64,000 nucleotides of DNA from Escherichia coli (GTDB lineage: Bacteria; Pseudomonadota; Gammaproteobacteria; Enterobacterales; Enterobacteriaceae): the NCBI RefSeq assembly GCF_030013595.1, contig NZ_CP122768.1; one strand, written 5' to 3'. Positions 38,026 through 62,400 of the stretch are shown piece by piece (within the stretch, counting starts at the first letter, position 1; every line of letters begins with the position of its first letter). The translations under genes were made by a program, and so were the position numbers. The notes under the pieces were generated by a model. The model worked only from the letters and a program-made list of their open reading frames with translations, was not told the DNA's origin and searched no databases.

Positions 38026-38059
38026 CTATAATCGCGGGGCTTCGTTTTTCAGGGATAAC
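38026..38059 (+). terminator. Terminator after ykgJ (GCCCCGC ... GCGGGGC + T-run)
   Basis: Stem-loop with TTCGTTTTT. Confidence 0.55.
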
Positions 38060-38241
38060 AAAACCCGAAACTTCTTCCATCTGCCAGCAACAATGCCTCT
38101 TCCTCTATAGTGTTCTCCGGATCTACAGCATCCTGAAGTAGCGCGATGTACTCATTGGCTATCTGCATCAGAAAGTTAAAAACAATGTTTTTAACCTATA
38201 AAAATGGCGCTTTATTTGCGCCATTTTTATCATTCAATGCA

Positions 38242-44240: not shown

Positions 44241-45434
44241 CTAAAGCGCACCGGCCTTCTGGCGTGCGGTAACAAAGGTCAGTACGCCAGCGCAAAGGAG
44301 CAGCACGCTACTCATAGCAAACGTGCTCTGCCAGCCAAGGCGGTCAAACACAATGCCTCCTGCCGTTGATCCAAGGGCGATGGCGAGCTGAATCACCGCG
44401 ACCATGAGCCCGCCTCCGGCTTCGGCGTTGTCAGGCAACGTACGCGCAATCCATGTCCACCATCCGGTTGGCGCGGCGGTGGCCAGCATGCCCCAGAGTC
44501 CTAACAGCAGCGAGACCGTCCAGACGTGATGCCCGGTAAGCATCAGACCGATGGCAATGACGGCCATCAGTCCGGGTATGGCCATCAGCGTGGGGTAGAA
44601 TTTTCTGTTGAGAAATGCCGAAACAACCAGCGTGCCAATAAAACCGGCCACGCCGATAATCAGCAAAATCGACGACAAGCCTAAGGAATTAACCCGTGTC
44701 ACCGACTCCAGAAACGGGCGCACATAGGTGAATAGCGCAAACTGCCCCATGAAAAACAGGCCACAAGCTATCATGCCGACCACAACCATGCGGCGGCTAA
44801 ATAAGCGGAATACCGCGCCACATGAAGTGTGGCTTTTATTCGCATCCATGCTTGGCAGGCTGATGCACTGCCAGATAAAGGCGACAACCGCGATGGGCAC
44901 CAGGCACAAGAAAGCGCCTCGCCATCCGACCGTAGCCCCCAGATAGCTTCCCAGCGGTGCGGCCACGACCGTCGCCAGCGCATTACCGGCGTTGAAAATT
45001 GCCAGCGCACGCGTGACCTGATGCTGCGGCACCAGACGAATCGCCGTTGCCGCTGACATCGACCAGAATCCGCCAATAGCCACACCAATCATCGCACGAC
45101 CGACCATATACATCAGATAACTGGAAGCCAGCGCAATAATAAGCCCCGATACGGCCATCAGAACCGTCATCCCCAGCAGCAGGAACTTACGATTCATCTT
45201 TCCAGCTAGCGTTGAAAGCGTCAGGCTGGTCAGAACCGCCAGCGCGCCGGAGATAGCAATCCCCTGCCCTGCCAGCCCCTCCGTCACGCCTAAATCGCGG
45301 GTAATCGGCGTGAGCAGGCTGACGGGCATAAATTCAGAAGCAATCAGCACAAACACGCACAGGGTCATGGCAAAAATACCGCCCCAGTATGCGCGCTGAT
45401 GATGAGGTGATAGTGTTTGGCTTAGTGTCGACAT
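44241..45434 (-). CDS. MFS transporter (397 aa)
   Basis: About 12 hydrophobic segments, MFS-like motifs. Confidence 0.8.
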   Translation of the reverse strand: MSTLSQTLSPHHQRAYWGGIFAMTLCVFVLIASEFMPVSLLTPITRDLGVTEGLAGQGIAISGALAVLTSLTLSTLAGKMNRKFLLLGMTVLMAVSGLIIALASSYLMYMVGRAMIGVAIGGFWSMSAATAIRLVPQHQVTRALAIFNAGNALATVVAAPLGSYLGATVGWRGAFLCLVPIAVVAFIWQCISLPSMDANKSHTSCGAVFRLFSRRMVVVGMIACGLFFMGQFALFTYVRPFLESVTRVNSLGLSSILLIIGVAGFIGTLVVSAFLNRKFYPTLMAIPGLMAVIAIGLMLTGHHVWTVSLLLGLWGMLATAAPTGWWTWIARTLPDNAEAGGGLMVAVIQLAIALGSTAGGIVFDRLGWQSTFAMSSVLLLCAGVLTFVTARQKAGAL

Positions 45435-45509
45435 AGTGAAATTTCACAAAGATCAGGATAAAAGCCACCAGCCTATGGCCGATGGCTTTGCATCAATTCA
45501 GGAGAGGTT

Positions 45510-46646
45510 TTATTTCAGTTTGGTCTGGAAAAATTGTTCGAACTTCGCGAAAGGTATTTTTCCGGCCACGTTATCGTACAGGTCCACGTGATTTGCCCCT
45601 GGTACCACCACCAACTCTTTGTCGTTACTGCCAACCGCCTTGTAAGCATCTTCAGCAAAATAACGTGAATGCGCTTTCTCACCGGTCACAATCAGCGTCG
45701 GAATGGTGATTTCACTGGCGTAGCTCAACAGCGGCATATTCATAAATGACAGCGGCATCGTTGCCGTCCACGCCCCGGTAGAGTTAACGGAACGTTCGTG
45801 GAAGCCGCGCGGCATGCGATAGTAGTCAAAGAACTCTTTCAGTACCGGATGAGGATTTGCCGGCAGCGTTTCTGGCAGAATGCGCTCGCCCGCACTGACC
45901 TTGCCGTTGCTGTCGACATTAATATCATGACCACCGTGAGCGAACGTTCCGCTCTTCGCATCCTTCCAGCGCTGTTCATTCAGATATTGCAGAACAGCAC
46001 GACGGTCGGCGGTAGAATAACGGTCTTTGCCATCCCCCACACCATGACCCATCGCCCGGCTCATGTCATACATCACGCTGGTAGCTACCGCTTTAACGCG
46101 GGTATCCATCGCTACGTCGTTCAGCGCCATGCCGCCCCAGCCACAAATACCGAGCAGCCCGATACGGTTGCGATCTACCTCTTTTTGCAGCCCTAAGAAA
46201 TCCACCGCCGCGCTGAAATCTTCAGTGTTGATATCCGGTGAGGCGACGTTTCGCGGATAGCCGCCGCTTTCCCCGGTGTAAGAAGGATCGAACGCCAAGG
46301 TAACAAACCCTCGTTCCGCCAGCGTCTGCGCATACAGGCCGCTGGATTGCTCTTTCACCGCGCCAAATGGCCCACTGACCGCAATCGCCGCCAGCTTGCG
46401 ATCGCCACGGTCTTTAGGCAGGTAAAGATCGCCCACTAAGGTGATGCCATATCGGTTCGGGAACGAGACTTTACGGTGATCGACTTTCTGGCTCTCGGCG
46501 AACGTTTTATCCCATTTATCTGTCATGGACACAGGGGCATTAGGATTGGTTGAATCAGCATAACTCATTGTCGTGACTCCACTTAATGATGCGAAAAGCA
46601 GCATGGTCGGCATCGCGGTTTTTAGCGTGCGGGTGAAGGCTTTCAT
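45510..46646 (-). CDS. Secreted alpha/beta hydrolase, dienelactone hydrolase-like with Cys nucleophile (ORF track start 46667)
   Basis: Signal peptide; GICGWGG nucleophile-elbow variant. Confidence 0.65.
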   Translation of the reverse strand: MKAFTRTLKTAMPTMLLFASLSGVTTMSYADSTNPNAPVSMTDKWDKTFAESQKVDHRKVSFPNRYGITLVGDLYLPKDRGDRKLAAIAVSGPFGAVKEQSSGLYAQTLAERGFVTLAFDPSYTGESGGYPRNVASPDINTEDFSAAVDFLGLQKEVDRNRIGLLGICGWGGMALNDVAMDTRVKAVATSVMYDMSRAMGHGVGDGKDRYSTADRRAVLQYLNEQRWKDAKSGTFAHGGHDINVDSNGKVSAGERILPETLPANPHPVLKEFFDYYRMPRGFHERSVNSTGAWTATMPLSFMNMPLLSYASEITIPTLIVTGEKAHSRYFAEDAYKAVGSNDKELVVVPGANHVDLYDNVAGKIPFAKFEQFFQTKLK

Positions 46647-46832
46647 AAAAATCCCCATAAAAAACAACAGAGAGATACAGGTTTCCGACGGACAACGCTG
46701 CGGTGCTTTGCTTTGATGGGGTCATTATAGTGAGCAGAATTAGTGCTGATTAGGGGGCGATTAATGCTAAGATTAATACCATATTGTTATAAATTAATGT
46801 GGAGATTGCCGGCATGAAGGGGGGATGTTTCA

Positions 46833-47717
46833 ATGGCGAAAAGGGAGAACTACAACGAGCTGTACCTGTTTATGCAGGTGGTGCGAGAAGGCAGCTTTAC
46901 CGCAGCGGCTCAGCGGCTGGGTCTTGCTCAGTCAGGAGTCAGCCGTTCTGTTCGCGAGCTTGAAGAAAGGCTGGGCGTCCAGCTGCTAGTGCGCACCACG
47001 CGTAAACTGTCGCTGACACAAGCAGGCGAGCAGCTCTACCAGAAGACGGCATCTGGATTTGAAATGTTAGATCTTGGGCTTGCCACGCTGGCGCACTATC
47101 GAGAGACGCCCTCCGGCACGGTGCGTATCAATGCCAGCCAGCACGCGATTGATAAATGCCTGCTGCCAAAGCTGGCGGTATTTAAACAGAGATATCCTGA
47201 TATCCGGCTTGAACTGATAAATGAGAGCCGGTTCGTCGATATCATCGAGGAAAGATTCGATGCAGGTGTCCGCCTGGGGCCTGAAGTCGGCCAGGGTATG
47301 GTCGCGGTACGCATCACGCCCGATATGGAGATGGCAATTGTGGGGACTCCGGAACATTTTCGTCGCTATGGTTTTCCGCAAACCCCGGCGGATTTAAAGG
47401 CGCATCCCTGTATCGCCTATCAGTTTGCCGACGGCAGCGTATACCAGTGGGAACTCAATCAGGATGATAAAAAAATCACTCATCGCCCTGAAGGGCAATG
47501 GGCCCTATCCGACAGCTATATGGAAGCAGAAGCCGCCCGGCTGGGCCTCGGATTGGCCTATGTTCCTGTTGAACTGGTCGCGGATGATTTAGAACACGGT
47601 AAGCTTATCAGGGTGTTGCAGCGTTACAGCCTGCGAATGGAGGGATTGTTTCTCTATTACCCTCATCGCAACGTCTCCCCCGCCCTGCGGATGGTCATTG
47701 ATACATTGAAAATCTGA
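46833..47717 (+). CDS. LysR-family transcriptional regulator (294 aa)
   Basis: N-terminal HTH LYLFMQVVREGSFTAAAQRLGLAQSGVSRSVRELEERL. Confidence 0.8.
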   Translation: MAKRENYNELYLFMQVVREGSFTAAAQRLGLAQSGVSRSVRELEERLGVQLLVRTTRKLSLTQAGEQLYQKTASGFEMLDLGLATLAHYRETPSGTVRINASQHAIDKCLLPKLAVFKQRYPDIRLELINESRFVDIIEERFDAGVRLGPEVGQGMVAVRITPDMEMAIVGTPEHFRRYGFPQTPADLKAHPCIAYQFADGSVYQWELNQDDKKITHRPEGQWALSDSYMEAEAARLGLGLAYVPVELVADDLEHGKLIRVLQRYSLRMEGLFLYYPHRNVSPALRMVIDTLKI

Positions 47718-47930
47718 ACGTTAACAACGACCGACTCTTCACTGTGCAAAATTGTGTCAGGTAGTCCCTCTGCGTTCAATTCCAGGGTCTGTACAGTCTG
47801 CTTTGAGCGAGAAAGAGGGGACTATCCAGCAATGGAGATCACCCAAAAGAAAAAACCACCTGGCTCCCTCGACAACCTTCATCCAGGCATTTAGCCTCAA
47901 TCAACATTTTTATATCTGTCAGGTTACTTC

Positions 47931-48215
47931 ATGATGAAAACTGATCATTATCGTTGTTTTTGTTGCAATAGTAGAATACGCGTATTTATTCCTCCATCTC
48001 TATTAATAACGGCAATAAACTGTTCACTTCACTGATATTTAAAATATGTATCCTTTTCAAGCTGTTCAGCGGCGTAAGAAAAAGTATTAATTATGAATTC
48101 GATGATTTAACCATATCTGTCTGATTGGTAATCATCCGTGATTAATGCTGGTCTATTGATTACGCCAGCATTAACCGCTTAGGGATGTATTCTTCCTGTT
48201 CATATAGCCCTCGAA
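47931..48215. repeat. Degenerate paralogous copy of the ykgR - ykgO-downstream flank (copy 1 at 28612-29600) with ykgM/ykgO coding part deleted
   Basis: Aligned by eye: shared ...attaataacggcaataaactgttcacttca... and terminator-like ccagcattaa segments. Confidence 0.55.
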
Positions 48216-48301
48216 AAAGAGAGAAAATAAAACTGTGTCCAATATTAATTTACCACTCCAGACCGAAGCATCGGTGGGATTAGCAGAATGATCTGCGTCT
48301 G

Positions 48302-48517
48302 ATGTTGAGGCTGGCTCTTGCCGGCGCAGGCATAACAATTGCCACTCAGGAAACTTTCAGGCCATATATTGAAAGCGGTAAGCTTGTATCGCTGCTTGAT
48401 GACTTTCTTCCACAATTTCCGGGCTTCTATCTGTATTTCCCACAGCGTCGCAATATTGCACCAAAGCTCCGCGCCCTGATTGACCACGTCAAGGAATGGC
48501 GGCAGCAATTGGCTTAA
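48302..48517 (+). pseudogene. yagP: LysR-family C-terminal fragment (yagP-like remnant)
   Basis: 71-aa ORF matching LysR substrate-binding C-terminus only. Confidence 0.5.
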
Positions 48518-48644
48518 ATGTCTGCACCTGCACTGCCTGATGTCAGAACAGTATTTTGATGAATTGCCAGGGTTACAATGGCACAAATACGGCACAGGAG
48601 GAAAATGTGGTGTAATTGAATGTGAGGTAACTACTTGATTTAAA

Positions 48645-48692
48645 TGGTGCCGATAAGAGGAGTCGAACCTCCGACCTTCGCATTACGAATTA
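48645..48692 (-). other. tRNA-Thr(CGU) 3' fragment (anticodon loop through CCA); att-site remnant at island boundary
   Basis: Reverse complement reads ...ctaattCGTaatgcgaaggtcggaggttcgactcctcttatcggcacca; 5' half lacks D-arm and acceptor pairing. Confidence 0.6.
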
Positions 48693-48855
48693 GCGAGACC
48701 AGTGATTCAAGATGTTCACATCCGTTTCAGCATACAATAAAAAATATATAAAAATCAACAAAATAGACATAAATGCAGTATCAAGATGTTTCGCCTTGTT
48801 TCTGATGATATCATGTTAAATGTGTACCCCACTGTGTACCCAAAAGGCTGAAGAT

Positions 48856-50175
48856 ATGACTTTTACTATTACACAAGACAGACAATTGGCTTCATTGACC
48901 GTTACTAAAGAAGAAAAAGAAATCTTATTTGCTGTAAAATCTAAAGCTGGGGGAGGACTCTTTATACGCGTTCGTTATGGTAGCGACAATAAAAGCTGGA
49001 TTTATCGTTATCGAATAGCTCAAAAGCCAGCTAAATTAACACTAGGTAGTTACCCTGCCATGGGATTAGCTCAAGCTCGTAAAGCTCATGCGGATGCAAT
49101 TGAATTAGTAAGAAAAGGTATAGATCCTCGTCATATTAGAAAAAATGAAAAACAAAAAAATGAACAAATGATTATTTACTCTGAATTATGGAAAGATTGG
49201 ATAGAATTCAGAAAGACAAGTAAACCAATTAGCACCAGACCCCTTGCAGATTATGAAGGGACTTATCACCGCCACCTTGAAAAAGCATTAGGAAACCTTC
49301 GCATTGACGAACTTACCAAAAGCGTTATTTTTGAACATCTCAGTAATGTAAGAAAAACCAGTTCTGAAGCAGTTCGTAAAGGATTAATTATTCTAAATAT
49401 GACTCTTGATCATGCCAACTTACAGGGTATGCTTGAGCATAACCCAGCACGACTGCTCAAACCAGCAATGTTTGGTGCATCGATGAATAAACCTCGCGAG
49501 CGATGGCTTCCTGAGAATGAACTCCGGATGCTATGGAAGGCTTTGGATGATGCTACTGTTGGAGGAGGCTCCATTGCATCTGGTGGCTATGGAATTTCCT
49601 CTAGTGTGGTATTATCTCATTCTGTCGCAAATGCACTCCGTTTGATTATTTTCACAGGAGTGCGCCGCTCTGAAGCGGCACAAATGCGCTGGGATCAAAT
49701 TAATGGAGAGCGTTGGACCATACCAGCCACTAAAAATGGGAAAAGCCATATTGTTACTTTACATCCGTATATGCTTTCTTTAATAAAAACACAACGTGAA
49801 TTCACTGAAGGTGCATATGTTTTTGGTTCTACTAGCAAACCTGGCTTTCCCATCACAAATGACGCTCTGACTCGCGCGTTAGAAAGGGTTCGCTCTAAGT
49901 ATCTAGCCGAACTTACTCCATTTTCTCCTCATGATCTGCGTAGAAGTGTTGCGACTGGATGCGCTGAATACCTTGATGCTCCAGAGCGCCTAATAGAGTT
50001 ACTGTTAAATCATGTACCCAAAGACCGTTTAATACGAACATATCAAGTCGGACAACAAGCTGAAAAATTAAAAAATTTATTTATAGAATGGGGGAATTTT
50101 ATTATGAATAACGTCATTACTGTGCAGCAGAATGCTCCGGATAATGTTATTCATATAAAATTTGGGAACAGATGA
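48856..50175 (+). CDS. Tyrosine integrase of CP4-type island (IntF-like; alternative start 48820)
   Basis: Integrase domain (R...HDLRRS...Y); adjacent to tRNA fragment. Confidence 0.8.
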   Translation: MTFTITQDRQLASLTVTKEEKEILFAVKSKAGGGLFIRVRYGSDNKSWIYRYRIAQKPAKLTLGSYPAMGLAQARKAHADAIELVRKGIDPRHIRKNEKQKNEQMIIYSELWKDWIEFRKTSKPISTRPLADYEGTYHRHLEKALGNLRIDELTKSVIFEHLSNVRKTSSEAVRKGLIILNMTLDHANLQGMLEHNPARLLKPAMFGASMNKPRERWLPENELRMLWKALDDATVGGGSIASGGYGISSSVVLSHSVANALRLIIFTGVRRSEAAQMRWDQINGERWTIPATKNGKSHIVTLHPYMLSLIKTQREFTEGAYVFGSTSKPGFPITNDALTRALERVRSKYLAELTPFSPHDLRRSVATGCAEYLDAPERLIELLLNHVPKDRLIRTYQVGQQAEKLKNLFIEWGNFIMNNVITVQQNAPDNVIHIKFGNR

Positions 50176-50267
50176 TAAAAATACATGCATGGTCTGAGAT
50201 ACCCTGTCTACTCGACCATGCAGTATGGTTCAACTAAATCAGTCACAACAAGAAATGATTAGTTTTA

Positions 50268-51116
50268 TTAGATATTGTATGGGATTATTTCTGGATAATA
50301 CTTCGCAATGATGTCATTTAGCCGATCAACCAGTTCTGGTTTTCTGAACGTGATATGCGCGGAGCCCTTCTTAAAGTATCTGATGCTGAACATCTCATCT
50401 TCATAGCAGGCTTTGCCCTGAACGGAGCGGATGTGATCATCCAGCCGAATAATGATATTTTCCCGGCTGTCGGGGATCGGTTTGCCGCTGAACAGGTGCA
50501 GCATTCTTTCCAGGTCGGCAAGTCGATCTGCCTGTTGCCCGGTGATAAGATGCAATCCCCACCGGTCCCACCTCACCAGATTGTTGACGATAATTTTACT
50601 GCCAAATTTACAGGGGCAATTGGTTTTGTAATCCCAGCTCAGTCCCCTGAAGACGTTGATGCCCCCACGCTCAAACACTTCATCCTTATTCTGGTGTAGT
50701 TGCTCAAACGTACTCAGTATATTCTCTTCACTGATTTCCGGAAAATTATCGTACTCCAGTGACCGGTACCATGTATCACGGGCCTGTGCATCCATTAAGG
50801 AAAGCATCCCTGAACGTTGCATCAGGTCACGCCAGATTTCACGGTCAAGGTTGCGGGTGATGGCTTTCATTGCCGTTTCAGGTTTCTCCATCAGCCAGCA
50901 ACCGCAGCGAAAATCCTGTTTCATGGCCCAGTCCGGAGCAGTTTTACCTCCAATACTTTCTGTCATTGCTGATATTTCAGCCAGTTGCCGGATAAGTGTG
51001 TCGATTTGCAGCAGTGTGCTCTTTCGTACAGCCAAAATGTGGCGGATACTGGTTGAGCAGATAACGTCCGTATGCCCGTTGACCACTTCCGGACGGGAGA
51101 TTGTGATGTCTGACAT
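50268..51116 (-). CDS. Hypothetical protein (282 aa), possibly DUF4942-like
   Basis: ORF downstream of yeeW-like gene; family assignment from memory only. Confidence 0.45.
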   Translation of the reverse strand: MSDITISRPEVVNGHTDVICSTSIRHILAVRKSTLLQIDTLIRQLAEISAMTESIGGKTAPDWAMKQDFRCGCWLMEKPETAMKAITRNLDREIWRDLMQRSGMLSLMDAQARDTWYRSLEYDNFPEISEENILSTFEQLHQNKDEVFERGGINVFRGLSWDYKTNCPCKFGSKIIVNNLVRWDRWGLHLITGQQADRLADLERMLHLFSGKPIPDSRENIIIRLDDHIRSVQGKACYEDEMFSIRYFKKGSAHITFRKPELVDRLNDIIAKYYPEIIPYNI

Positions 51117-51200
51117 TATCGGTTTCCCTTTTGGTTTATAAACGAAAACGCCAGCCCTGTTCAGGCTGACGTCAGTGGAATGAAGTATGGTGAGTGATAT

Positions 51201-51623
51201 TTACCGCTTCTGGTGCAGAAGCTGCAGATGACGAAGAGTACGGACATCCTCCCGGGCCTGTTCGATACAGGGCAACAGTGCTACCGAATCCGTTTTATCC
51301 TCATCGTTGTCAAAGATAATTCCCGATTCGCAGTCGATATTGTCCTGCAGCCACGCAATGAGGATATCCAGCGCTGTTTCAGTGGTTAATGGCATCACGC
51401 TCTGTATCACTGTATTGTCTTCCGGCAACTGATGAGGGCTGGCAGAAGTCGCCGGTGTTTCGGTAGCGTCACGTTCATTCACCACGCGGAGTGAATAACC
51501 GTTTTCAGCGACTTTGTTAATCAGTTCAGCGAGCTCAATACCATCGACGTCAACGACAATGCGCCCCATGTTCAGCGCCTGCGCATTAATGCTGTCGGCT
51601 TCCAGCGTCAGGGCCAGTTTCAT
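51201..51623 (-). CDS. YeeW-like protein (140 aa)
   Basis: Position immediately downstream of CbtA-like toxin; acidic. Confidence 0.5.
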   Translation of the reverse strand: MKLALTLEADSINAQALNMGRIVVDVDGIELAELINKVAENGYSLRVVNERDATETPATSASPHQLPEDNTVIQSVMPLTTETALDILIAWLQDNIDCESGIIFDNDEDKTDSVALLPCIEQAREDVRTLRHLQLLHQKR

Positions 51624-52000
51624 TGTTTCGCCCCCGGATGTTTACCCAGGGTAATGTTATTTACCGTTCTGTAGTTGTCGCGTGTCATCAGGCCGGTTGC
51701 CCGGCGTGCCCGGAGGATATCAATACTGTTTATTAACTGAGAACGGGTACAGGCGCTGAATCCCGGCTGGTCGGTACGTACCAGTGCGTATTTTTCAACG
51801 AGAAAGTTCACCGCATCGCACAGTGAAATGCCTGCCTCAATATGCTGCTCAATCACACGTTCATCAGCGAACGGTGTGTCATTCAGCGTAAGGCCGTAGT
51901 GCTGATCCAGCAGTCGGGTGAGCAGTGTCTGCCAGATTTCAACCGGAGACGGGCGTGAACTGGCCGCCTGCCCGGGTAATACAGGTAATGTTTTCATACT
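51620..52000 (-). CDS. CbtA/YkfI/YeeV-family type IV toxin (about 126 aa; ORF track extends to 52138)
   Basis: MKTLPVLPGQAASSRPSPVEIWQTLLTRLLDQHYGLTLNDTPF matches CbtA family N-terminus. Confidence 0.75.
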   Translation of the reverse strand, partial: SMKTLPVLPGQAASSRPSPVEIWQTLLTRLLDQHYGLTLNDTPFADERVIEQHIEAGISLCDAVNFLVEKYALVRTDQPGFSACTRSQLINSIDILRARRATGLMTRDNYRTVNNITLGKHPGAKQ

Positions 52001-52086
52001 GAAGATTTTCCTGAAATGCAGAGATGAAAAATGGAAAAGTGGCGTGGTGAAAGCACCAGGCCGGAGCAGAAGGTTATTCTGGAGAG

Positions 52087-52455
52087 TTACTTTTTCGTTT
52101 CGGGCGTCGGATAAACAGCCATATAAACGTAGCCACAACTGCCGAGGGTGTCGGCTTCGCAGGTCAGCCCTTTTGCATACAGCGTGACGGTATGCTGATG
52201 GCGGGGATTCAGTTCACCGCTGGTGAGCATGAGCTCCAGTTGTTTCATCAGCAGCGGAAAGGCCTGGTCTAGGTGGTACGAATCCGCGTCGCTGAACCGC
52301 CCTCTGATACCGGCGCGGTCGGCAAGGTAATGCAACCGGTTGCCTTCCTGTACCAGACGGGCACCAAAACAGGGCGTCACGGTGCAGGGCAGTCCCCACC
52401 AGGTGCGGTCGTTATTGTCGTCGGGAAGCGTTGTCCCGGGGAGTGTGTCTGACAC
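52087..52455 (-). CDS. CbeA/YafW/YeeU-family type IV antitoxin (122 aa)
   Basis: Family pattern; immediately upstream of toxin. Confidence 0.75.
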   Translation of the reverse strand: MSDTLPGTTLPDDNNDRTWWGLPCTVTPCFGARLVQEGNRLHYLADRAGIRGRFSDADSYHLDQAFPLLMKQLELMLTSGELNPRHQHTVTLYAKGLTCEADTLGSCGYVYMAVYPTPETKK

Positions 52456-52534
52456 GATAAAATCCTCACAGAAAATTGGTTAAGAATGGTCCGGTGGTGG
52501 CGATAATTCTGCTCTTCTGAATGCCCTTCCAGAC

Positions 52535-52756
52535 TCAGTTCAGGGTGACGCTCATCAGCCGGACATACGGACCAAAACTGTCCTTCCGGCGTTCTGCAAA
52601 CACAGCCAGCACACCGGGAATATCCTGTACTTCACGGCCGGTATATGTATCCGTGCTACCGTGCCAGCGGTATTTACCGGTACAGAACGGAAAAAGACGG
52701 GATGCAGGATGCTGACGGTGAATACGCATGGCTTCACCACGGGTGATGATTTTCAT
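52535..52756 (-). CDS. DUF987 protein (YkfH/YeeT-like, 73 aa)
   Basis: Position and size in CP4 module. Confidence 0.6.
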   Translation of the reverse strand: MKIITRGEAMRIHRQHPASRLFPFCTGKYRWHGSTDTYTGREVQDIPGVLAVFAERRKDSFGPYVRLMSVTLN

Positions 52757-52842
52757 GAGAATAGTCCTCCTGAATGTGAAAGTAAGAAACAGCTGAGAAA
52801 GAGAAACTGAAGTGATATGAAGGTGATTGTGACGGTGACGGG

Positions 52843-53334
52843 TTAAAGCAGACCGTGTTCCGCAAAGGAGAAAACCTGGCTGCCACCGATTATCAGATGG
52901 TCCGGTACCCGGATATCCACCAGGGCCAGTGCCTGTACCAGACGCTCAGTGATAAGGCGGTCTGCCTTGCTGGGGGTGACTTCACCGGACGGGTGATTGT
53001 GCGCCAGCACCACGGCAGCGGCATTGTGGTACAGGGCGCGTTTAATCACCTCCCGGGGATGGACTTCTGTGCGGTTGATGGTGCCAGTGAAGAGGGTTTC
53101 ACCGGCAATCAGCTGATTCTGGTTGTTCAGATACAGCACCCGGAACTCTTCCCGCTCCAGTCCCGCCATGTTCAGTATCAGCCATTCCCGTGCCGCATGC
53201 GTGGAGGTGAAGGCCACGCCGGGTTCATGAAGATGGCGGTCCAGGGTTTTCAGGGCCCGTTGAATGAGGCTGCGCTCGCCGGGCGTCATCTCTCCGGGCA
53301 GAAAGGAAAGCTGTTGCATTGTGCTTCTCTCCAT
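52843..53334 (-). CDS. RadC-like JAB-domain protein (YkfG/YeeS-like)
   Basis: JAMM motif HNHPSGEVTPSKAD. Confidence 0.8.
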   Translation of the reverse strand: MERSTMQQLSFLPGEMTPGERSLIQRALKTLDRHLHEPGVAFTSTHAAREWLILNMAGLEREEFRVLYLNNQNQLIAGETLFTGTINRTEVHPREVIKRALYHNAAAVVLAHNHPSGEVTPSKADRLITERLVQALALVDIRVPDHLIIGGSQVFSFAEHGLL

Positions 53335-53820
53335 TCAGTCGATGATGCGCATAATGGCGCTGCATTCCGGATGCTGCAGGGCGTAATCCCGCAGCCGGTA
53401 ATAATGGACCGTCATGGCATAACACTCCGTACGACAGGCATGATGACTGTACGTCATCAGACAGGCAGCAATGCCGGCGGCTTCCGGGCTCATTTCAGCG
53501 CGGTTGCCGTTCATGACATTGAACAGTACCCATATTTCGTCATCATCGTCATCCGGTTCGGGTGCCATAAATGCCCCGCCGTTGTTCAGAGTGTACAGAT
53601 TCCAGATACCACCGCAGTAGTCTTCGCTCAGACGGTCCATCCAGCCGAAAACACGGGGCTCCAGGGTCACCCACTGTGGAATGAGACCAAAGTGCTGCGG
53701 CCAGAAGCTGATGCGCTGTTCATCAGGGACTATGGTGGCAACCAGCTGAGGCTGGTCATTCCCTGATGCAGCGGTTACGGAAACAGAAGGAGTGGTGGAA
53801 TTATGCGAGACGGTTGTCAT
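53335..53820 (-). CDS. Anti-restriction protein (YafX/YfjX-like, 161 aa)
   Basis: Position in CP4 module; acidic stretch PEPDDDDDE. Confidence 0.6.
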   Translation of the reverse strand: MTTVSHNSTTPSVSVTAASGNDQPQLVATIVPDEQRISFWPQHFGLIPQWVTLEPRVFGWMDRLSEDYCGGIWNLYTLNNGGAFMAPEPDDDDDEIWVLFNVMNGNRAEMSPEAAGIAACLMTYSHHACRTECYAMTVHYYRLRDYALQHPECSAIMRIID

Positions 53821-53911
53821 GAGATTATTCCTTATAAAAAGTAAATGAATGGAAGAAACCCCGGGGGAAGGGACAAACGTGAGTCAGAACTGCGCTTTCA
53901 GGGAAAAGGCA

Positions 53912-54730
53912 TCAGCACATGCTCTCCAGCAGCGTTTCAGCCATTACCCACAATGCGCGATTGAGCTTAATGTCGGTGTCGATGCTGTGAATGGCACGGG
54001 TATGGATACGTTTCCCTCTGGCACTGCGACCGGAAATTCCGCCTTTCAGCATATTCTCCTGAATGGTCTGATAAGCACTCCACAGGTCCTTACCGTAATC
54101 CTCCCGGCGTCGTGGTGTCAGAATGTCGGCGGTGGTGACGGGCTGATGTTCGTCACCATAACGGTAAGTCAGTGCCGCCTGTGCCAGCGCCTGGCGTGCC
54201 GGTGGCGGCAGAATCAGCGACTGCATGGCATCACGCTTTTCCTCAATCCGCTCAAACACGCCCACCACCTCGTAAGCCCCTTCAATAACTTTCTCCACCA
54301 CATTTCCCCGGTGTGGAACACGCAATTCTCCCAGAGACTGACCGCAGACCAGTCCATTGGTACAAATGGCACGAAAATATCCGGGTAACATCTGGTAGCT
54401 GGATGAACCGTCATGGGAGTTGAGCAGAATAATTTCAGGGACATGCTGACCGGTTATCTGCCCGGCCCGCCGCAGACGCAGCATGTGTTTTGTGTATTCC
54501 CGGCGGCTCTGGTCGCGCACGCGGGTCTGGCAGGCAAAGAACGGCTGAAAGCCTTCCTGCTGCAGATTTTCCAGGACGGTGATAGTGGGAATGTACGCAT
54601 AGTGTTCACTTCGGGAGGTATGTCGGTTTTCCCCAAAAATACTCGGTACATGGCGCATCAGTTCTTCGTGTGTCAGCGGACGGTCACGGCGTATCTGGTT
54701 TACATGACCAAAACGACTCGCTAATCGCAT
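53912..54730 (-). CDS. YafZ/YfjQ-family protein (DUF932-like, 272 aa)
   Basis: Family pattern from memory; CP4 module position. Confidence 0.6.
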   Translation of the reverse strand: MRLASRFGHVNQIRRDRPLTHEELMRHVPSIFGENRHTSRSEHYAYIPTITVLENLQQEGFQPFFACQTRVRDQSRREYTKHMLRLRRAGQITGQHVPEIILLNSHDGSSSYQMLPGYFRAICTNGLVCGQSLGELRVPHRGNVVEKVIEGAYEVVGVFERIEEKRDAMQSLILPPPARQALAQAALTYRYGDEHQPVTTADILTPRRREDYGKDLWSAYQTIQENMLKGGISGRSARGKRIHTRAIHSIDTDIKLNRALWVMAETLLESMC

Positions 54731-54849
54731 TATTTGCTCCTTATGAATGAGTTAGCGGTATAAATGAATAAATATCCTCCGGCATAGCCGGAGGTTTTTC
54801 AAATGCGCCTGTAAGGCTCTGTTACCAGCCGCGCCCTAACAGGCGCATA

Positions 54850-55525
54850 CGATCTGACATTTGCATTCAACTTCGTTACTTACGGCCCGTAAACGGGCTG
54901 CCCGGATATGGAATCGATAACTGCTCCCCCATTTTATCCTCTTCAAGCTGGTGCTTTATGTAGTCCTGTATCTTCGCCGTGTTCTTACCCACCGTATCGA
55001 CATAGTACCCTCGGCACCAGAACTCCCTGTTTCTGTATTTGAATTTCAAATCCCCAAACTGCTCGTAAAGCATCAGACTGCTTTTCCCTTTCAGATATCC
55101 CATAAAGCCGGATACGCTCATTTTGGGTGGGATTTCCACAAGCATATGGATATGATCTGCGCAGCACTCTGCTTCCAGAATCCGTACGCTTTTCCACTCA
55201 CACAGCTTTCTCAAAATACTGCCTATCGCCCTACGCTTCTCTCCGTAAAACGCCAGTCTTCGGTATTTCGGCGCAAAAACTATGTGATATTTACAGTTCC
55301 AGCGGGTGTGCGCTAAGCTCTTTTCGTCCCCCATTGGGACCCCCTTTTGATTTCTTGTTTGACACTTGCAGTTGCCAGACCGCAAGGTGTTTTAACAAAT
55401 CAAAAGGGGTTTTAATAACTGGCTCAAAGCTGAAAGCTTTCCGGAACCCCCAGCCTAGCTGGGGGTTTTCTGTGCACAAAAAGCCGCGTCTCCCGGAGAA
55501 GACGCGGCCTGATGGGTGAAATGAA
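54850..55525. mobile_element. IS200/IS605-family insertion sequence (approximate ends)
   Basis: Y1/HUH transposase ORF flanked by structured ends; hairpins at 55340-55520. Confidence 0.65.
54876..55334 (-). CDS. tnpA: IS200-type transposase TnpA (about 152 aa)
   Basis: HUH motif HIHMLVEIPP and catalytic Tyr region YYVDTVG. Confidence 0.8.
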   Translation of the reverse strand: MGDEKSLAHTRWNCKYHIVFAPKYRRLAFYGEKRRAIGSILRKLCEWKSVRILEAECCADHIHMLVEIPPKMSVSGFMGYLKGKSSLMLYEQFGDLKFKYRNREFWCRGYYVDTVGKNTAKIQDYIKHQLEEDKMGEQLSIPYPGSPFTGRK

Positions 55526-55530
55526 GACGT

Positions 55531-55800
55531 TTATTGCCTGAGAATTCCCTCACTGGCGAGATACGGATTTAGCTGTTTTCCGGCATCAGGTTCAAAATTC
55601 CAGTACCGCCAGCGCAACTGACCTTCAGCATTACGGATAACCAGCCGGAAATGCGTTCCCTGGTCATCTTCAATAAGCACATTGCGGTAAGCTGTTGTGA
55701 CGGCAACCGCCTGTTCGCGTGAGAAAGGGCCTTCGGGTAATAAACGTGATGTACAACCCGGCATATCTGTTGCTCCCTGAAAGTAAAAGGCCCCGGTCAT
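55531..55800 (-). CDS. Hypothetical small protein (89 aa) downstream of Ag43
   Basis: ORF only. Confidence 0.4.
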
Positions 55801-55834
55801 GATGACCGGGGCCTGAAGGGGAGTGACCTGATTA

Positions 55835-58681
55835 TCAGAAAGTCACATTCAGCGTGGCCTGACCGTTATAACCTTCAGCGCTGCTGCCGCTGACGCTGTG
55901 GGCATAACCGGCCTGAACGCCCAGGGTGATATTTTCCCGGACACGGGCTTCCAGTCCGGCCTGCAGGTCCAGTGACGTGCCATTCTGGGATGGTGAGAAC
56001 GTCATGTTACTGCCGGCTGCGGCTGTACCCATGCTCATGTCACCCCGGGAGCTGAAGGTGCGGATAACAGAAGGCTGTACCCACCAGTTCACCGGCAGTT
56101 CACGCACACTGTGTTTTGCACTGTCGCGCAGGGTGTCACGGGATGAGGTGCCTTCACCAAAGGTCATATCGTTGTGGCTGCCCAGACGGAAACCGGCACG
56201 CACATGTTGTGCACTGCCATGCCCGAACTTCACATAACCGGCGTTATCCTGGCCGTCATCCAGGGAAAGTCCCTGCCAGGTATACTGCAGTTGTGGCTCC
56301 AGCATCAGGTTGTCAGTGATACTGAAGGGCAGACCGGTTTCCAGTGAGCCCAGCCAGCCCCAGCCCCGGGCGCGGAAGTCGTTATTGTCCGATGACGCTT
56401 TCATGCTGTGGCGGGTTCCCTGTGCCACAATGTCAGCCCACAGGCCGGAGGACGTGTGTGTCAGATTCAGGTATCCGCCCAGGCTGCCGGCATCATCCCG
56501 GACCGTGCCGGCACGGGAGCCGTCATCATCCTTAACATCAACGGAAGAATGGCCTGCAGCGCCATATACCCCCGTGGTCACAGACATACCGGCAACCTCT
56601 GTTCTCAGCAGGTCACCCTCCAGACGGACGAAGCCATAGCTGCCGCTGCTTTCCGGCGTGGCCCCACGGGCAATACCGCCGTTGTTATCGTGACCGAGAT
56701 GACCGCCCTGAATGCTGAGACGGACGCTGTTATTTTCACCGTTTACACCGGTCTGATGGCTGCGGGAGCCTGCCAGAATCCGGTCATAGTCCATTGCCTG
56801 TGTCAGCATGGAGGCATACAGGGGGACTTCAGCACGATAAGCATTTTCACTGCGCAGGTACCAGTCTTCATCGCTGTCACGGTTCAGGGTGTAGTTAAAG
56901 ACACCGGCCTGAAGCGGGCGACTCAGGGCAAACGCACCTTCTTCTGTGGTGGCACCATTCTGTGCATCCACAACCCGGATACCCTGTCCGGAGGTTGCCA
57001 CCCCGAGGTTACTGTTTCCGACATTTGTGAACGCAAGCCAGGTTTTGCCGGTTGCCTGACCACCATTAATCACCAGCTGGTCAGGGGCATTGCTGCCATC
57101 AAGGCGAACACGCATATTGATGGTGCCACCCTGACCGGTGAGGTTACTGGTGGTCAGTTTATGGAACGTTACCGGGGCGTCGCCTTTTGCAACAGCACGG
57201 CTCAGGACGGCATCCTGTGTCGTCTGATTATCAAAGCGAATCTCCCCTGCGTTAACAATATCGCCGGTACTGACCACATCACCATTCAGTACCATGCTGG
57301 CGCCTTTACTGAGCTGTGTTCTGCCACTCAGACTTCCCCCGGCAGCCAGCATCAGTGTCCCACGATGTCCGACAGTGGTGTTGCTGGCCTGTCCCCCGGC
57401 ATTAACCGTAAAGCTACCGCCATTTTCCAGCAGCAGGCCGCTGGCCTGACCGGATATACCATCAATACTGAACTTACCGCTGGCATTGGTCCCCTCAACA
57501 GTGGCACCACTGTCTGCAATCAGGGCACCACCGGATGTCATGGTGACACCTGTTGCCTTACCACCGGCAGACACTGCCAGGGTACCGCCGTCATCCACCC
57601 GTGTTTTCTGCGCTGAATGGCCCTCCAGTACATCCAGGCGACCGCCGGACTCCAGAACAAGGCCGTCAGCCTTACCGTTTTCCACCGTGAAATTGCCCAG
57701 ACGGTTGCTGCCGGTGACGGTTGCCGCCGTACTGGTGACCAGTGCGCCCCCCTGCTTCAGGGTGACATTCGTGGCTGTACCACCGGCGTTCACCTGCAGC
57801 TTGCCTTTCTGGTTAACGGTGGTGAAATCCGCCAGACCACCTTCCTTGATAATCTGCCAGCCGTCACTGTTTACAACAGTGCCAGACGCCGTACCGCCGT
57901 TGTGCACATACTGGTACCCCCCATTCAGCGTGGTATCCAGTGCGTGACCATGTACAGTCTGGTCGCCGCCGGCATAAACCACAGTGGTATTTACCGTTCC
58001 TTCAGCAGCCACAATCTGACGACCATTTTTATTGATGGTGGTGCGTACGGCATCTCCGTAGACGGTCTGCCCGGTATCACCATTTTCTGCATCCGGTCCC
58101 CCTTCCGCGCCGGTATTCACAACCGTGTCGGTTGCCACTGCGCCGGATTTGACGGCCTGCCAGCCCTTCTCATTAATGACAGTACCCGTTGCAATCCCGC
58201 CTTCATGTACCCACTGCTCACCGCCGTTCAGAGTGGTGTTCACTGCCTGCCCCTGAAGGCTCTGTCCGCCTCCGGCACTGATAACCGTGTCTGAAACGCT
58301 TCCTCCGGCATTCACTCTCTGAAGACCACCACCGGTGACAGTAGTGTTGTTGGCGATACCGCCATTTTGTATCCATTGTCCGCCGGTATTGGCCTCGTTA
58401 TCCGGCCCATACTCCAGACCGGTACTGATGGTCATTCCGTTGGCCGTACCGAAGACAATCTGGTTGTCATGATTTTCCAGTGTTCCGCCGCTCACGGTTT
58501 CTCCCGTCTGTACAACCGTGTCAGCAGCCAGTGCCGGGACTGATGTGACAGCAGCAAGAGACAGCGCAACCGCCACACCGGCGCGTTTTCCCCGTGAGCG
58601 GGCCAGTTCGGAGGTCACCACCAGGGTGCCCGTAATGTGATTCCATACCAGCCTGTAGCTGGTGTTCAGATGTCGTTTCAT
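55835..58681 (-). CDS. flu: Antigen 43 self-associating autotransporter adhesin (about 948 aa; ORF track start 58756)
   Basis: [35 protein letters not shown]... extended signal peptide; repetitive beta-helix passenger; C-terminal beta-barrel. Confidence 0.85.
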
Positions 58682-58898
58682 CAGCTTTTCCTTACAGAGG
58701 GTGAATAAAAAAGCCGGTACCCACAAATATGGGTACCGGCAGGTACAAAACAGCATGGTCAGATAAAGTGGTTTTTCCCGGACATAAATGCTTCTCCTCT
58801 CTCATCCGCCAGAGAAGTATCAGTCCGTTGTGTGCAATTCCGTTCTGCATGATGAAGAGATTCAGCTGCCTTTTCGCAGACCATTAACCACTATAAAC

Positions 58899-58934
58899 GA
58901 TCGATGGTAACGATCGATACATGTTTTATCGATC
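58899..58934. promoter_or_regulatory. Three GATC (Dam) sites at 58899, 58912, 58931 in Ag43 upstream region: OxyR/Dam phase-variation switch
   Basis: cGATCGATggtaacGATCGATacatgttttatcGATCGtttt, 220-250 bp upstream of flu start. Confidence 0.65.
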
Positions 58935-59052
58935 GTTTTATTCTATTAACAGCAAGGCAGTCACGCAAGAGAAAGAGGTGGGTATGAGGTGTTTGTGTCA
59001 TGTTTTCAGTTGGTTAACGCAATGTAATCAGGCATTTCCCCTGGCAGAGTGT

Positions 59053-59925
59053 TCAGAAGAAAATCCAGTTCCATACAGCGCGGGCAACAGAGACCACCGT
59101 GTCACGGACGACACGCAGAACCGTACGAGCCACAGAGGCAATACAGACGCTCTCCGCCGTGTCAAATATCCGGTCCACCGCACCGGTAAACTGTTCACGG
59201 GCCTGCCCCCGGACAGATTCCGTGCACAACTCGTCCTGCAGGCGGGTCATCAGGGGACTGGCGGCATGGTCGGGAAGTGCTGTCATGAGCGCACTGACCA
59301 GCGTATCCAGTTCCCAGCCGGTGCGGGCCGATACGGCCACAACCGGATGTACGGGCCGGAACAGCCGGAATACCGCATCTGTTTTCTCACGAATGTTCTG
59401 TTCCTGTGCGGGAGAAGGCTGAATACCTGCCATATCCCATTCATGGCAGGGCTCCGTTTTGTCGGCCTGCGTCACCACAAACAGCACCTGCTGATGTCCC
59501 CGGTGCAGGATGTGTCGCCAGAAATACTCATCCACAGACAGGGCACGGTCATCGGCTTTAATCAGCCACAGTACCAGGTCAAGTTCAGGCAGAATGTCAC
59601 GGTACAGGGCTTCATACTCTGCATCCCTGTCCCGGCTCTCGCCCACCCCGGGTAGGTCAGTGATAACCATGCTGTGACCATGGCCACTCAGACGGAAGCG
59701 CTGCGCTTCCCGGGTGCCGGCGTGAACATCACTGACCGGGGTGACCTCCCCCTGAAACAGTGCATTACAGAGTGAGGATTTACCGGCCCCGCTTTTCCCC
59801 ATAATGCCAATCACGGGTTCGTGGCTGGTGAGTTTGCGCAGATGTTCCAGGATGTGACGGGAAAGTGAGTAAGGAAGAGAAGAAAGTGGTTTTTCAATTG
59901 CCTCAATGGCATCAGACGGATTCAT
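59053..59925 (-). CDS. YeeP/YkfA-family GTPase (about 290 aa; ORF track start 59964)
   Basis: P-loop GKSGAGKSSLCNALF; DLPG G3 motif. Confidence 0.75.
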   Translation of the reverse strand: MNPSDAIEAIEKPLSSLPYSLSRHILEHLRKLTSHEPVIGIMGKSGAGKSSLCNALFQGEVTPVSDVHAGTREAQRFRLSGHGHSMVITDLPGVGESRDRDAEYEALYRDILPELDLVLWLIKADDRALSVDEYFWRHILHRGHQQVLFVVTQADKTEPCHEWDMAGIQPSPAQEQNIREKTDAVFRLFRPVHPVVAVSARTGWELDTLVSALMTALPDHAASPLMTRLQDELCTESVRGQAREQFTGAVDRIFDTAESVCIASVARTVLRVVRDTVVSVARAVWNWIFF

Positions 59926-59954
59926 ACATGTATTCCCGGTGAAAAAAGACAAAA

Positions 59955-59980
59955 CCCCGCGCACCGGAAAGGTGGCGGGG
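59955..59980. other. GC-rich hairpin CCCCGCGCACC-ggaaa-GGTGGCGGGG; on minus strand followed by T-run
   Basis: Perfect inverted repeat seen directly. Confidence 0.4.
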
Positions 59981-60255
59981 GATTCACGGAGATAATATCT
60001 GTCTGAAATTATTTAGGATGCAGGTATCTTCAGATAATCGCACCCCCAGAATTTTATTCTTAATAGTTGAATAGTGGTATTTGGTTTCCCTGAGAGAATA
60101 TAAAGATGAATCATGCTGTATTGAGTTTGATTCTATTTGTACTGAGACAGGTATCTTCATGATTATAATCAAAAGCCGGGTGGATTGGTCTGGCGCTAAT
60201 TATTTTCTCGAATAAACTCACTAATTATTGTAACCATCCCAAAGGAGATGATTTT

Positions 60256-62400
60256 ATGTATAATTGTGGTGAATCATATTCAGAATACGACATATCATTA
60301 TCTGACGATGAAAACTATAACGATGACTATTATCGTGAGCGCCCGTGCCCGGGAGAAGTTTTCGGCTATGATAATGATGTACCACGGTTTAGTAAGATTG
60401 CACGGTCTTATTTGCTCCACGTGGGTAGCCTTGACTGGACCAAGATAAATCCGGATATCTTTGGCTCCATGATTCAGGCAATTGCCGAAGATGAAGAGCG
60501 CGGAGAGCTGGGTATGCATTACACCAGCGTACCCAACATCTTAAAAGTTTTGAATCCACTATTTCTTGACGACCTGCGTGCACAGCTGGACGAGGCTGGT
60601 GACAATCCACGTATGTTGCTGAACCTGCGCAAACGCATTTCCCACATTCGTGTGTTCGACCCAGCGTGCGGTTCTGGGAACTTTTTGGTTATCGCGTATA
60701 AGGAAATGCGTGCCATTGAGGCCGAAATCAACAAGAGGCGCAGTGAGCCGGATCGTGCCTCGGATATTCCACTTACCAACTTTCGCGGGATTGAACTACG
60801 AGATTTCCCGGCAGAAATCGCCCGCCTTGCGCTTGTTATCGCTGAGTACCAATGTGATGTGCTGTACCGTGGGCTGCGGCTGGCCTTGGCTGAGCTTCTT
60901 CCTTTACGCAACGAAAATTGGATTACTTGTGGCAATGCACTGCGGCTCGACTGGTTAAGAATTTGTCCGCCAACGGGAACCAGTGTGAAATTACATGGTG
61001 ACGACTTGTTTGGATCACCGCTTGATCAGGCAGAGATTGACTTTGAAAATGAAGGAGGAGAGACATATATTTGTGGAAATCCTCCATACAAGGGTAGCCA
61101 AACCCAAACTGATGACCAAAAAAATGATCTAAAAGCCATATTCGAGAAACGCACAACTAATTGGAAGTCATTGGATTATGTTGCAGGTTGGTTTATGAAG
61201 GCTGTCGACTACGGTAGTCAAACTAACTCGTCTGCTGCGTTCGTCTCAACTAATTCCATTTGTCAAGGTAGACAGGTCGAAACCCTTTGGTCGTTGATTT
61301 TTGCAGCCAAGCATGAAATATCCTTTGCTTATACGTCCTTCAAATGGGCAAATCTTGCTAGCCACAATGCGGGAGTGAGTGTCATTGTTGTGGGAATTTC
61401 TAATCATGTTAAGGGCCCCCGGAAAATATTTTCCACAACTGAGGATTTGGGGACCATCATAAAAGAAGTAGACAACATCAATGCGTATCTTGTCGCGGGT
61501 AAAAGCACAATTGTTGCACAGCGAAGTTTTCCTTTATCCGAAGTAAGTGTAATGGATTTTGGTTCAATGGCGAACGATGGTGGTGGCCTTCTTTTTGACA
61601 GTTCAGAATCAAGTCGTGCAGTTAATGATTATGGTGCTGATATTTGTTATTTTCGAAAGGCTTGGGGAGCTAAGGAGTTTATTTCTGGAACTCCTAGAGC
61701 TTGCCTGTGGTTAAATAAAGACAGTGCTAAAAAAGCAATTCTGAACTCTTGGATTTCAGACCGAATTGAGATCACACGTAAGGCCAGAGCAAATAGTCCT
61801 CGGGCAGCGACAAAAAAACTAGCAGATATTGCTTACAGATTTGGTGAAGTGAGGCAAGACGGCAGCGAGCGAATCATTATTGTTCCCAGTGTCAGTTCTG
61901 AACGTAGGGAGTATCTTCCATGTGGTTATCTCGATGTTGGTTCAATCGTTATCGCTCCGAATCTTGCTTTCTATGATTCCCCGCTTTGGAATATGGCGCT
62001 TATTGCTTCTAGGTTGCATTTGGTATGGGTGGCGACAGTCTGCGGGCGTATCAAAACTGACTATCGCTACTCTAATACCCTTGGCTGGAATACTTTCCCT
62101 GTCCCACCACTCACTGAGAAAAACAAGGCCGACCTTACGCGTTGCGCAGAGGATATCCTACTGGCGCGGGAACACCACTTCCCTGCGACTATTGCGGATT
62201 TGTATGATCCCGCGAACATGCCCCCTGACCTGCGTGCTGCCCATGAACGAAACGACGAAGTGCTGGAACGCATCTATATAGGGCGACGATTCAAGAACGA
62301 CACTGAGCGGCTGGAAAAGTTGTTCGACCTCTACACGAAAATGATTGCTTCGACTGCACCGGTCAAAGGTAAGAAGCGCAAAGCAGGAAATAACGAATGA
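60256..62400 (+). CDS. Gamma-class N6-adenine DNA methyltransferase with large C-terminal putative target-recognition region (714 aa)
   Basis: SAM motif I VFDPACGSGNFLV (about aa 135) and catalytic motif IV ICGNPPYKG (about aa 270); GGAG RBS. Confidence 0.75.
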   Translation: MYNCGESYSEYDISLSDDENYNDDYYRERPCPGEVFGYDNDVPRFSKIARSYLLHVGSLDWTKINPDIFGSMIQAIAEDEERGELGMHYTSVPNILKVLNPLFLDDLRAQLDEAGDNPRMLLNLRKRISHIRVFDPACGSGNFLVIAYKEMRAIEAEINKRRSEPDRASDIPLTNFRGIELRDFPAEIARLALVIAEYQCDVLYRGLRLALAELLPLRNENWITCGNALRLDWLRICPPTGTSVKLHGDDLFGSPLDQAEIDFENEGGETYICGNPPYKGSQTQTDDQKNDLKAIFEKRTTNWKSLDYVAGWFMKAVDYGSQTNSSAAFVSTNSICQGRQVETLWSLIFAAKHEISFAYTSFKWANLASHNAGVSVIVVGISNHVKGPRKIFSTTEDLGTIIKEVDNINAYLVAGKSTIVAQRSFPLSEVSVMDFGSMANDGGGLLFDSSESSRAVNDYGADICYFRKAWGAKEFISGTPRACLWLNKDSAKKAILNSWISDRIEITRKARANSPRAATKKLADIAYRFGEVRQDGSERIIIVPSVSSERREYLPCGYLDVGSIVIAPNLAFYDSPLWNMALIASRLHLVWVATVCGRIKTDYRYSNTLGWNTFPVPPLTEKNKADLTRCAEDILLAREHHFPATIADLYDPANMPPDLRAAHERNDEVLERIYIGRRFKNDTERLEKLFDLYTKMIASTAPVKGKKRKAGNNE

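Follow-up and report, generated by a model that had tools for sequence, protein, structure and literature searches.

The toxin-antitoxin gene pair

The window analyzed here is a 64,000-nucleotide stretch of an Escherichia coli contig (NZ_CP122768.1), and on its minus strand, at 51620-52455, it carries two genes of the cbtA and cbeA families. The cbeA-type antitoxin gene (52087-52455, 122 aa) lies directly 5' of the cbtA-type toxin gene (51620-51997, 125 aa counted from an ATG), with the antitoxin ending at 52087 and the toxin starting at 51997. The 89-nt spacer between them (51998-52086) bears the ribosome-binding site of the toxin, whose ATG is preceded by AGGAAA. The antitoxin begins at a GTG, as does K-12 cbeA, with a GAGGA Shine-Dalgarno sequence 8 nt upstream. 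At the distal end of the pair, the toxin stop overlaps the start of a YeeW-like open reading frame as ATGA, an overlap that is also kept in K-12. A first-pass annotation had placed a CbtA/CbeA pair at this position with products of about 126 and 122 residues; the pair is real and the antitoxin was sized correctly, but the toxin is one of 125 residues. A 172-aa toxin frame opening at an upstream TTG (51620-52138) and overlapping the antitoxin was rejected as a mechanical artifact of ORF calling, because K-12 CbtA and the RefSeq proteins in related strains start at the ATG.

Both products match their Pfam families over essentially the full profile and far beyond chance, the toxin as CbtA_toxin (PF06755; E = 4.2e-59; 197.9 bits against a cutoff of 25; profile positions 1-112 of 112) and the antitoxin as CbeA_antitoxin (PF06154; E = 5.4e-55; 184.6 bits against a cutoff of 27; positions 2-100 of 101). 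No NCBIfam model matches either protein. The antitoxin also aligns with the solved structures of YeeU (PDB 2H28, E = 7.4e-78; 2INW, E = 5.9e-78) and of YfjZ (2JN7 and 2EA9, E about 3e-43); a search for a solved structure of the toxin found none. The toxin opens with MKTLPVLPGQ, exactly as K-12 CbtA does, and is identical to the RefSeq protein WP_000854821.1, annotated as CbtA, while the antitoxin differs by a single residue (D56N) from WP_024214935.1 of strain DSM 103246. In CbtA, the R15C substitution abolishes the interaction with MreB and F65S that with FtsZ, and the protein is non-toxic only as the R15C + F65S double mutant (PMC5624674). Both R15 and F65 are conserved in the toxin of the window.

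Alignment to the K-12 homologs, which the first-pass annotation had named as the check on its assignment, bears that assignment out. The toxin is 96.8% identical to CbtA/YeeV, 66.3% to YpjF and 58.9% to YkfI, and the antitoxin 92.6% identical to CbeA/YeeU, 69.0% to YfjZ, 66.0% to YafW and 65.3% to YagB. Relative to the K-12 CbtA/CbeA pair, the toxin differs at four residues and has one extra C-terminal residue, and the antitoxin differs at nine. Judged by these identities, the pair is of the YeeV/YeeU (CP4-44) type and not YkfI/YafW-like, though it is located at the CP4-6 site.

The accessory module

Read from high to low coordinates along the minus strand, the genes surrounding the pair encode a GTPase, Ag43, DUF905, DUF932, antirestriction, RadC-like and DUF987 proteins, followed by cbeA and cbtA themselves and then by the YeeW-like and DUF4942 genes. 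The first gene of the module, for a YeeP/YkfA/YfjP-like GTPase (59053-59964; minus strand, as for all module features that follow; Pfam MMR_HSR1, 4e-15), shows 95.5% DNA identity to the K-12 yeeP fragment. It is followed by an IsrC/IS102-type RNA (58700-58936; Rfam RF00124, 72.6 bits against a gathering score of 46), which stands upstream of the gene for an autotransporter adhesin of the Ag43/Cah family (55835-58756; Pfam AIDA, Autotransporter, AC_1, and ESPR) just as isrC is placed before flu in K-12. The adhesin gene has 83-89% DNA identity to K-12 flu and is annotated alike in relatives.

The DUF905 gene (55531-55800; YkfF-like; Pfam DUF905, 8.7e-31) precedes a YafZ/YfjQ-like DUF932 gene (53912-54730; Pfam DUF932, 6.7e-48) that is about 70-72% identical at the DNA level to K-12 yafZ and yfjQ. 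Closer to the pair are the antirestriction gene (53335-53820; YafX/YfjX-like; Pfam Antirestrict, 1.8e-36), a YeeS-like gene for a RadC-like JAB domain protein (52843-53334; Pfam RadC, 5.1e-45; NCBIfam TIGR00608 at 150.7 bits, above cutoff) and a YeeT-like DUF987 gene of 73 codons (52535-52756; Pfam DUF987, 2.7e-39). Beyond the toxin, the YeeW-like ORF (51201-51623, 140 aa) matches Pfam DUF5983_N (6.8e-28) over residues 4-57, and the module ends with a DUF4942 gene (50268-51116; Pfam DUF4942, 1.7e-68) that bears the same annotation in relatives. The YeeW-like, DUF987, RadC-like, antirestriction and YafZ flanks listed in the first-pass annotation are thus all present with Pfam support and in the order given, and its judgment that this is a known module holds: the order is the conserved CP4-type order, and all ORFs are full length. 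The PADLOC defense-system library returned no match to the module genes apart from a weak one to the GTPase.

An IS200-family element of 705 bp (54773-55477, minus strand) occupies the spacer between the DUF905 and DUF932 genes. It encodes a 152-aa Y1 transposase (tnpA, 54876-55334; Pfam Y1_Tnp, 7.9e-37) and an STnc490 RNA (55344-55467; Rfam, 146 bits), and lies 42 bp from the DUF932 start, on its upstream side, in a spacer that measures 89 bp in relatives. The insertion is intergenic, and the module genes are all intact. The element is missing from otherwise 99.6-99.7% identical islands, and its junction was found in none of the 5426 complete E. coli genomes searched. IS200C copies do occur in the same spacer of more distant islands in other strains.

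The island and its attachment site

A tyrosine integrase gene (48820-50175, plus strand; Pfam Arm-DNA-bind_3 and Phage_integrase) lies beyond the DUF4942 gene; its start as annotated by PGAP in relatives corresponds to 48856, and its product differs from WP_000144688.1 by one residue. It adjoins a displaced 3' fragment of tRNA-Thr (48627-48690, minus strand), with no intact tRNA there, and is transcribed into the island. The fragment, 64 nt long and ptwF-like, is 92% identical to the 3' part of K-12 thrW; ARAGORN found no complete tRNA at the island end, where only the 3' fragment is present. Both the fragment and the integrase fall within 3 kb of the toxin. To the left of the fragment stands a yagP-like fragment of a LysR gene, with paoABCD further left, and window positions 48287-48690 are 96% identical to the K-12 ptwF-yagP junction, which begins exactly at the right end of CP4-6. 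Since homology to K-12 resumes exactly at that end, the island occupies the thrW/ptwF site, is bounded on the left at about 48690 and extends past the window on its other side. On this mapping, the island is placed at thrW/ptwF, the CP4-6 position, while the module that it carries is CP4-44-like.

The integrase was considered as an ortholog of K-12 IntF and rejected as such, with only 25% identity between the two. The geometry of intF in K-12 is the same, and this sameness of arrangement with integrases so divergent indicates that different P4-like islands with unrelated integrases use the thrW/ptwF site.

The left flank holds features of its own. Between paoD and the yagP-like LysR fragment (44241-48287) are genes for an MFS transporter, an alpha/beta hydrolase and a complete LysR regulator, which occur neither in K-12 nor in the strains with the most similar island, and the paoD-MFS-hydrolase-LysR arrangement is found in about 910 complete E. 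coli genomes. An AT-rich, non-coding stretch (47720-48290, about 40% GC) separates these genes from the LysR fragment. Further away, Rfam detected an IS009 RNA (38036-38236, minus strand, 191.5 bits) immediately upstream of the region with yagU and the pao operon; it is unrelated to the pair.

Distribution and closest relatives

The 1556-bp core of the module, from the YeeW-like ORF to the DUF987 gene, has matches in 4964 of 5426 complete E. coli genomes, at a median of three places per genome and at up to 16. The best match is at least 99% identical in 113 records, the top ones reaching 99.9%, and in the top matches PGAP annotates cbtA together with a "YeeU family antitoxin". The first-pass annotation would have the pair add an extra copy to this strain; a tblastn search with all seven K-12 family members located only this one pair within the window, and multiple copies are typical of the species. 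The locus is a further instance of a pair present in most E. coli, commonly in several copies, and it matters little alone. Its use is as a marker, identifying the window from 48690 on as a P4-like island at the thrW site with a CP4-44-type module.

The most similar islands are those of strains VTB97022v (NZ_CP178670.1) and DSM 103246 (NZ_CP019944.1). Both encode an identical toxin and show 99.6-99.9% DNA identity from the yagP fragment through the integrase, module, Ag43 gene and GTPase gene, and the VTB97022v island is 99.6-100% identical to window positions 48287-64000 apart from two structural differences. Neither copy has the IS200 element or the three additional genes of the left flank (MFS, hydrolase and LysR), and both keep 2.3 kb comprising IS66 remnants and the 5' end of a type IIG restriction-methylase gene.

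The corresponding region of the window (60256-62400, plus strand) shows a 2291-bp deletion relative to VTB97022v, with its junction at 60372-60375. The deletion removes the IS66 remnants together with some 253 codons from the 5' end of an MmeI-like type IIG restriction-methylase gene (928 aa when complete), leaving a 714-aa ORF that covers positions 260-910 of 912 in the PADLOC REase_MTase_IIG profile; the N-terminal part lost from the protein is presumably its nuclease domain. In relatives the type IIG gene is followed by genes for a DEAD/DEAH helicase and a GIY-YIG nuclease, and the helicase gene here runs off the window end. The deletion junction at 60372 occurs in none of the 5426 complete E. 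coli genomes.

Expression of the pair

The identity, gene order and location described above lead us to regard the pair, with a probability of about 93%, as an intact ortholog of K-12 cbeA-cbtA (yeeU-yeeV) that is part of a conserved accessory module, on a P4-like island integrated at the tRNA gene thrW. No feature of the sequence speaks against this.

A simple consensus promoter scan gave no convincing minus-strand site before cbeA, and promoter-like sites in total were fewer than expected from shuffles (3 against 5.6). Terminator-like sites were at chance level, the best one after the module lying at 51173-51147, downstream of the YeeW-like ORF. The predicted RNA fold of the 89-nt spacer was no better than that of shuffles (z = -0.68), and Rfam had no match within the pair. 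Because the spacing is tight and no convincing promoter was seen before cbeA, the pair probably shares a transcript with the RadC-like and DUF987 genes on its upstream side and the YeeW-like gene on its downstream side. The IS200 element, being upstream, could alter read-through transcription of the module.

These features might also be taken to mean that the pair is intact but silent in this strain, a passenger of a decaying island with no meaningful expression or physiological role. The island does show decay and rearrangement, in the IS200 insertion close to the DUF932 gene, the 2.3-kb deletion that truncates the neighboring type IIG restriction-methylase gene and the loss of the C-domain from the YeeW-like gene, to which may be added that no promoter-like site was found directly upstream of cbeA on the minus strand. 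Against this, the ORFs of the module all retain their full length, and copies in other strains encode the same toxin and an antitoxin that differs by one residue. Furthermore, deletions of the three homologous toxins or antitoxins in K-12 give oxidative-stress and biofilm phenotypes (PMC5371832), and these loci are therefore expressed in K-12. Silence of the pair is accordingly considered unlikely, and an intact cbeA-cbtA ortholog, probably co-transcribed with its neighbors, is the reading favored here.

The YeeW-like ORF

The 140-aa YeeW-like product is 75.8% identical to K-12 YeeW over 62 aa; its DUF5983 N-domain runs in frame into a DUF957-type C-terminus. At BL21-type loci these are separate, as a 162-aa DUF5983 protein and a 65-aa DUF957 protein whose genes are separated by 11 nt; about 275 nt are missing between the two domains in the window. 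From this alignment the fusion is best described as deletion-derived relative to the split form, and the 64-aa K-12 yeeW product as a further truncation. For an identical ORF in relatives, PGAP gives two features, "partial DUF5983" and "DUF957". A programmed frameshift has been proposed for fused and split DUF5983-DUF957 annotations (2026 preprint, 10.64898/2026.06.09.728211). That the fused form here is explained instead by a deletion of ~275 nt bears on this proposal, a minor point for annotators.

The position of this ORF raises the idea that the module is a three-part system, in which the DUF5983_N/DUF957 protein, coupled to toxin translation, acts as a regulator or second antitoxin. K-12 retains the ATGA in which the cbtA stop and the downstream start overlap; a survey across E. 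coli lineages found CbtA_toxin directly followed by DUF5983 in every case (PMC10790755); and the same 2026 preprint argues for confident folding of the small protein beside DUF5983 and for its consistent linkage to cbtA-cbeA (10.64898/2026.06.09.728211). If such a system existed, the ORF would be a working component and not debris, and toxin activity would be adjusted differently from one island to the next, depending on whether the ORF is split (162 + 65 aa), fused (140 aa) or truncated (64 aa). The same variability, from 64 aa in K-12 through the 140-aa fusion of the window to the 162 + 65 aa of BL21, nevertheless speaks against a third component, as do the absence of any match in the PADLOC defense-system library and the YkfI/YafW and YpjF/YfjZ loci, which lack a YeeW-like gene and yet are working two-gene pairs (PMC5371832). 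A third component of this kind is thus very unlikely.

Proposed mechanism of the pair

The K-12 proteins provide the model for how this pair would act. CbtA interacts with the H6/H7 loop of FtsZ and with the flat double-protofilament face of MreB, and blocks division and elongation independently (PMC5624674). CbeA does not interact with CbtA but binds and bundles FtsZ and MreB filaments, which is the defining type IV behavior (PMC5624674; PMC5371832), and it protects cells against unrelated FtsZ inhibitors as well (PMC5624674). We infer type IV (target-level) neutralization, toxicity and rescue for the present pair by homology to these proteins, and the same mechanism may be assigned to it with high confidence from 93-97% identity and the conserved key residues.

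The two genes, head to tail on the minus strand, each have a ribosome-binding site of their own. By homology, the toxin would bind the H6/H7 loop of FtsZ and the flat double-filament interface of MreB, and polymerization of both proteins would be blocked, such that division and elongation stop and cells become lemon-shaped. The antitoxin is expected not to bind the toxin but to bind and bundle FtsZ and MreB filaments, and so to offset the toxin at the level of the toxin's targets. That the antitoxin instead acts by another route, for instance by binding the toxin directly or controlling its expression, and that the pair is not truly type IV, could be argued from the few in vitro and over-expression studies of K-12 proteins on which the mechanism rests, but is highly improbable given that published work reports CbeA bundling of FtsZ and MreB without a CbtA-CbeA interaction, and CbeA rescue from unrelated FtsZ inhibitors.

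Comparison with known systems

The CbtA/CbeA pair is already known, and the copy described here is no departure from known systems; what can be compared is which of the three K-12 loci it resembles, and how closely. At CP4-57, the YpjF/YfjZ locus has a like order of genes for DUF932, antirestriction (LfgA), RadC-like protease (LfgB), DUF987, antitoxin and toxin, but it is located at ssrA, has no YeeW-like or DUF4942 gene downstream of the toxin, and its module DNA is about 70-75% identical to that of the window. The YkfI/YafW locus of CP4-6 occupies the same chromosomal site (thrW to ptwF/yagP/pao) and has the same families in the same module order; the spacer within its pair is 20 nt in K-12, and its module DNA is again only about 70-75% identical.

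In K-12, the spacer of cbeA-cbtA is reported as 88 bases and those of the other two pairs as 20 bases (PMC5371832), so that a long spacer sets cbeA-cbtA apart from the other two K-12 pairs. The spacer in the window, at 89 nt, aligns with the 88-nt spacer of CP4-44 with few changes.

The closest K-12 counterpart by these measures, CP4-44, nonetheless differs from the present island in several respects. It has no integrase, whereas the island here lies at thrW/ptwF with one; yeeR stands in K-12 CP4-44 in place of the DUF905, DUF932 and antirestriction genes; its YeeW-like ORF is of 64 aa as opposed to 140 aa; and the DUF4942 gene and IS200 are additional here. The two loci otherwise agree in the antitoxin-then-toxin order and the yeeW overlap, in 89.8% DNA identity from yeeS to yeeW, in neighboring products (YeeS 97.3% and YeeT 93.2% identical to their counterparts), and in the Ag43 (flu) and yeeP-type GTPase genes that lie upstream in both.
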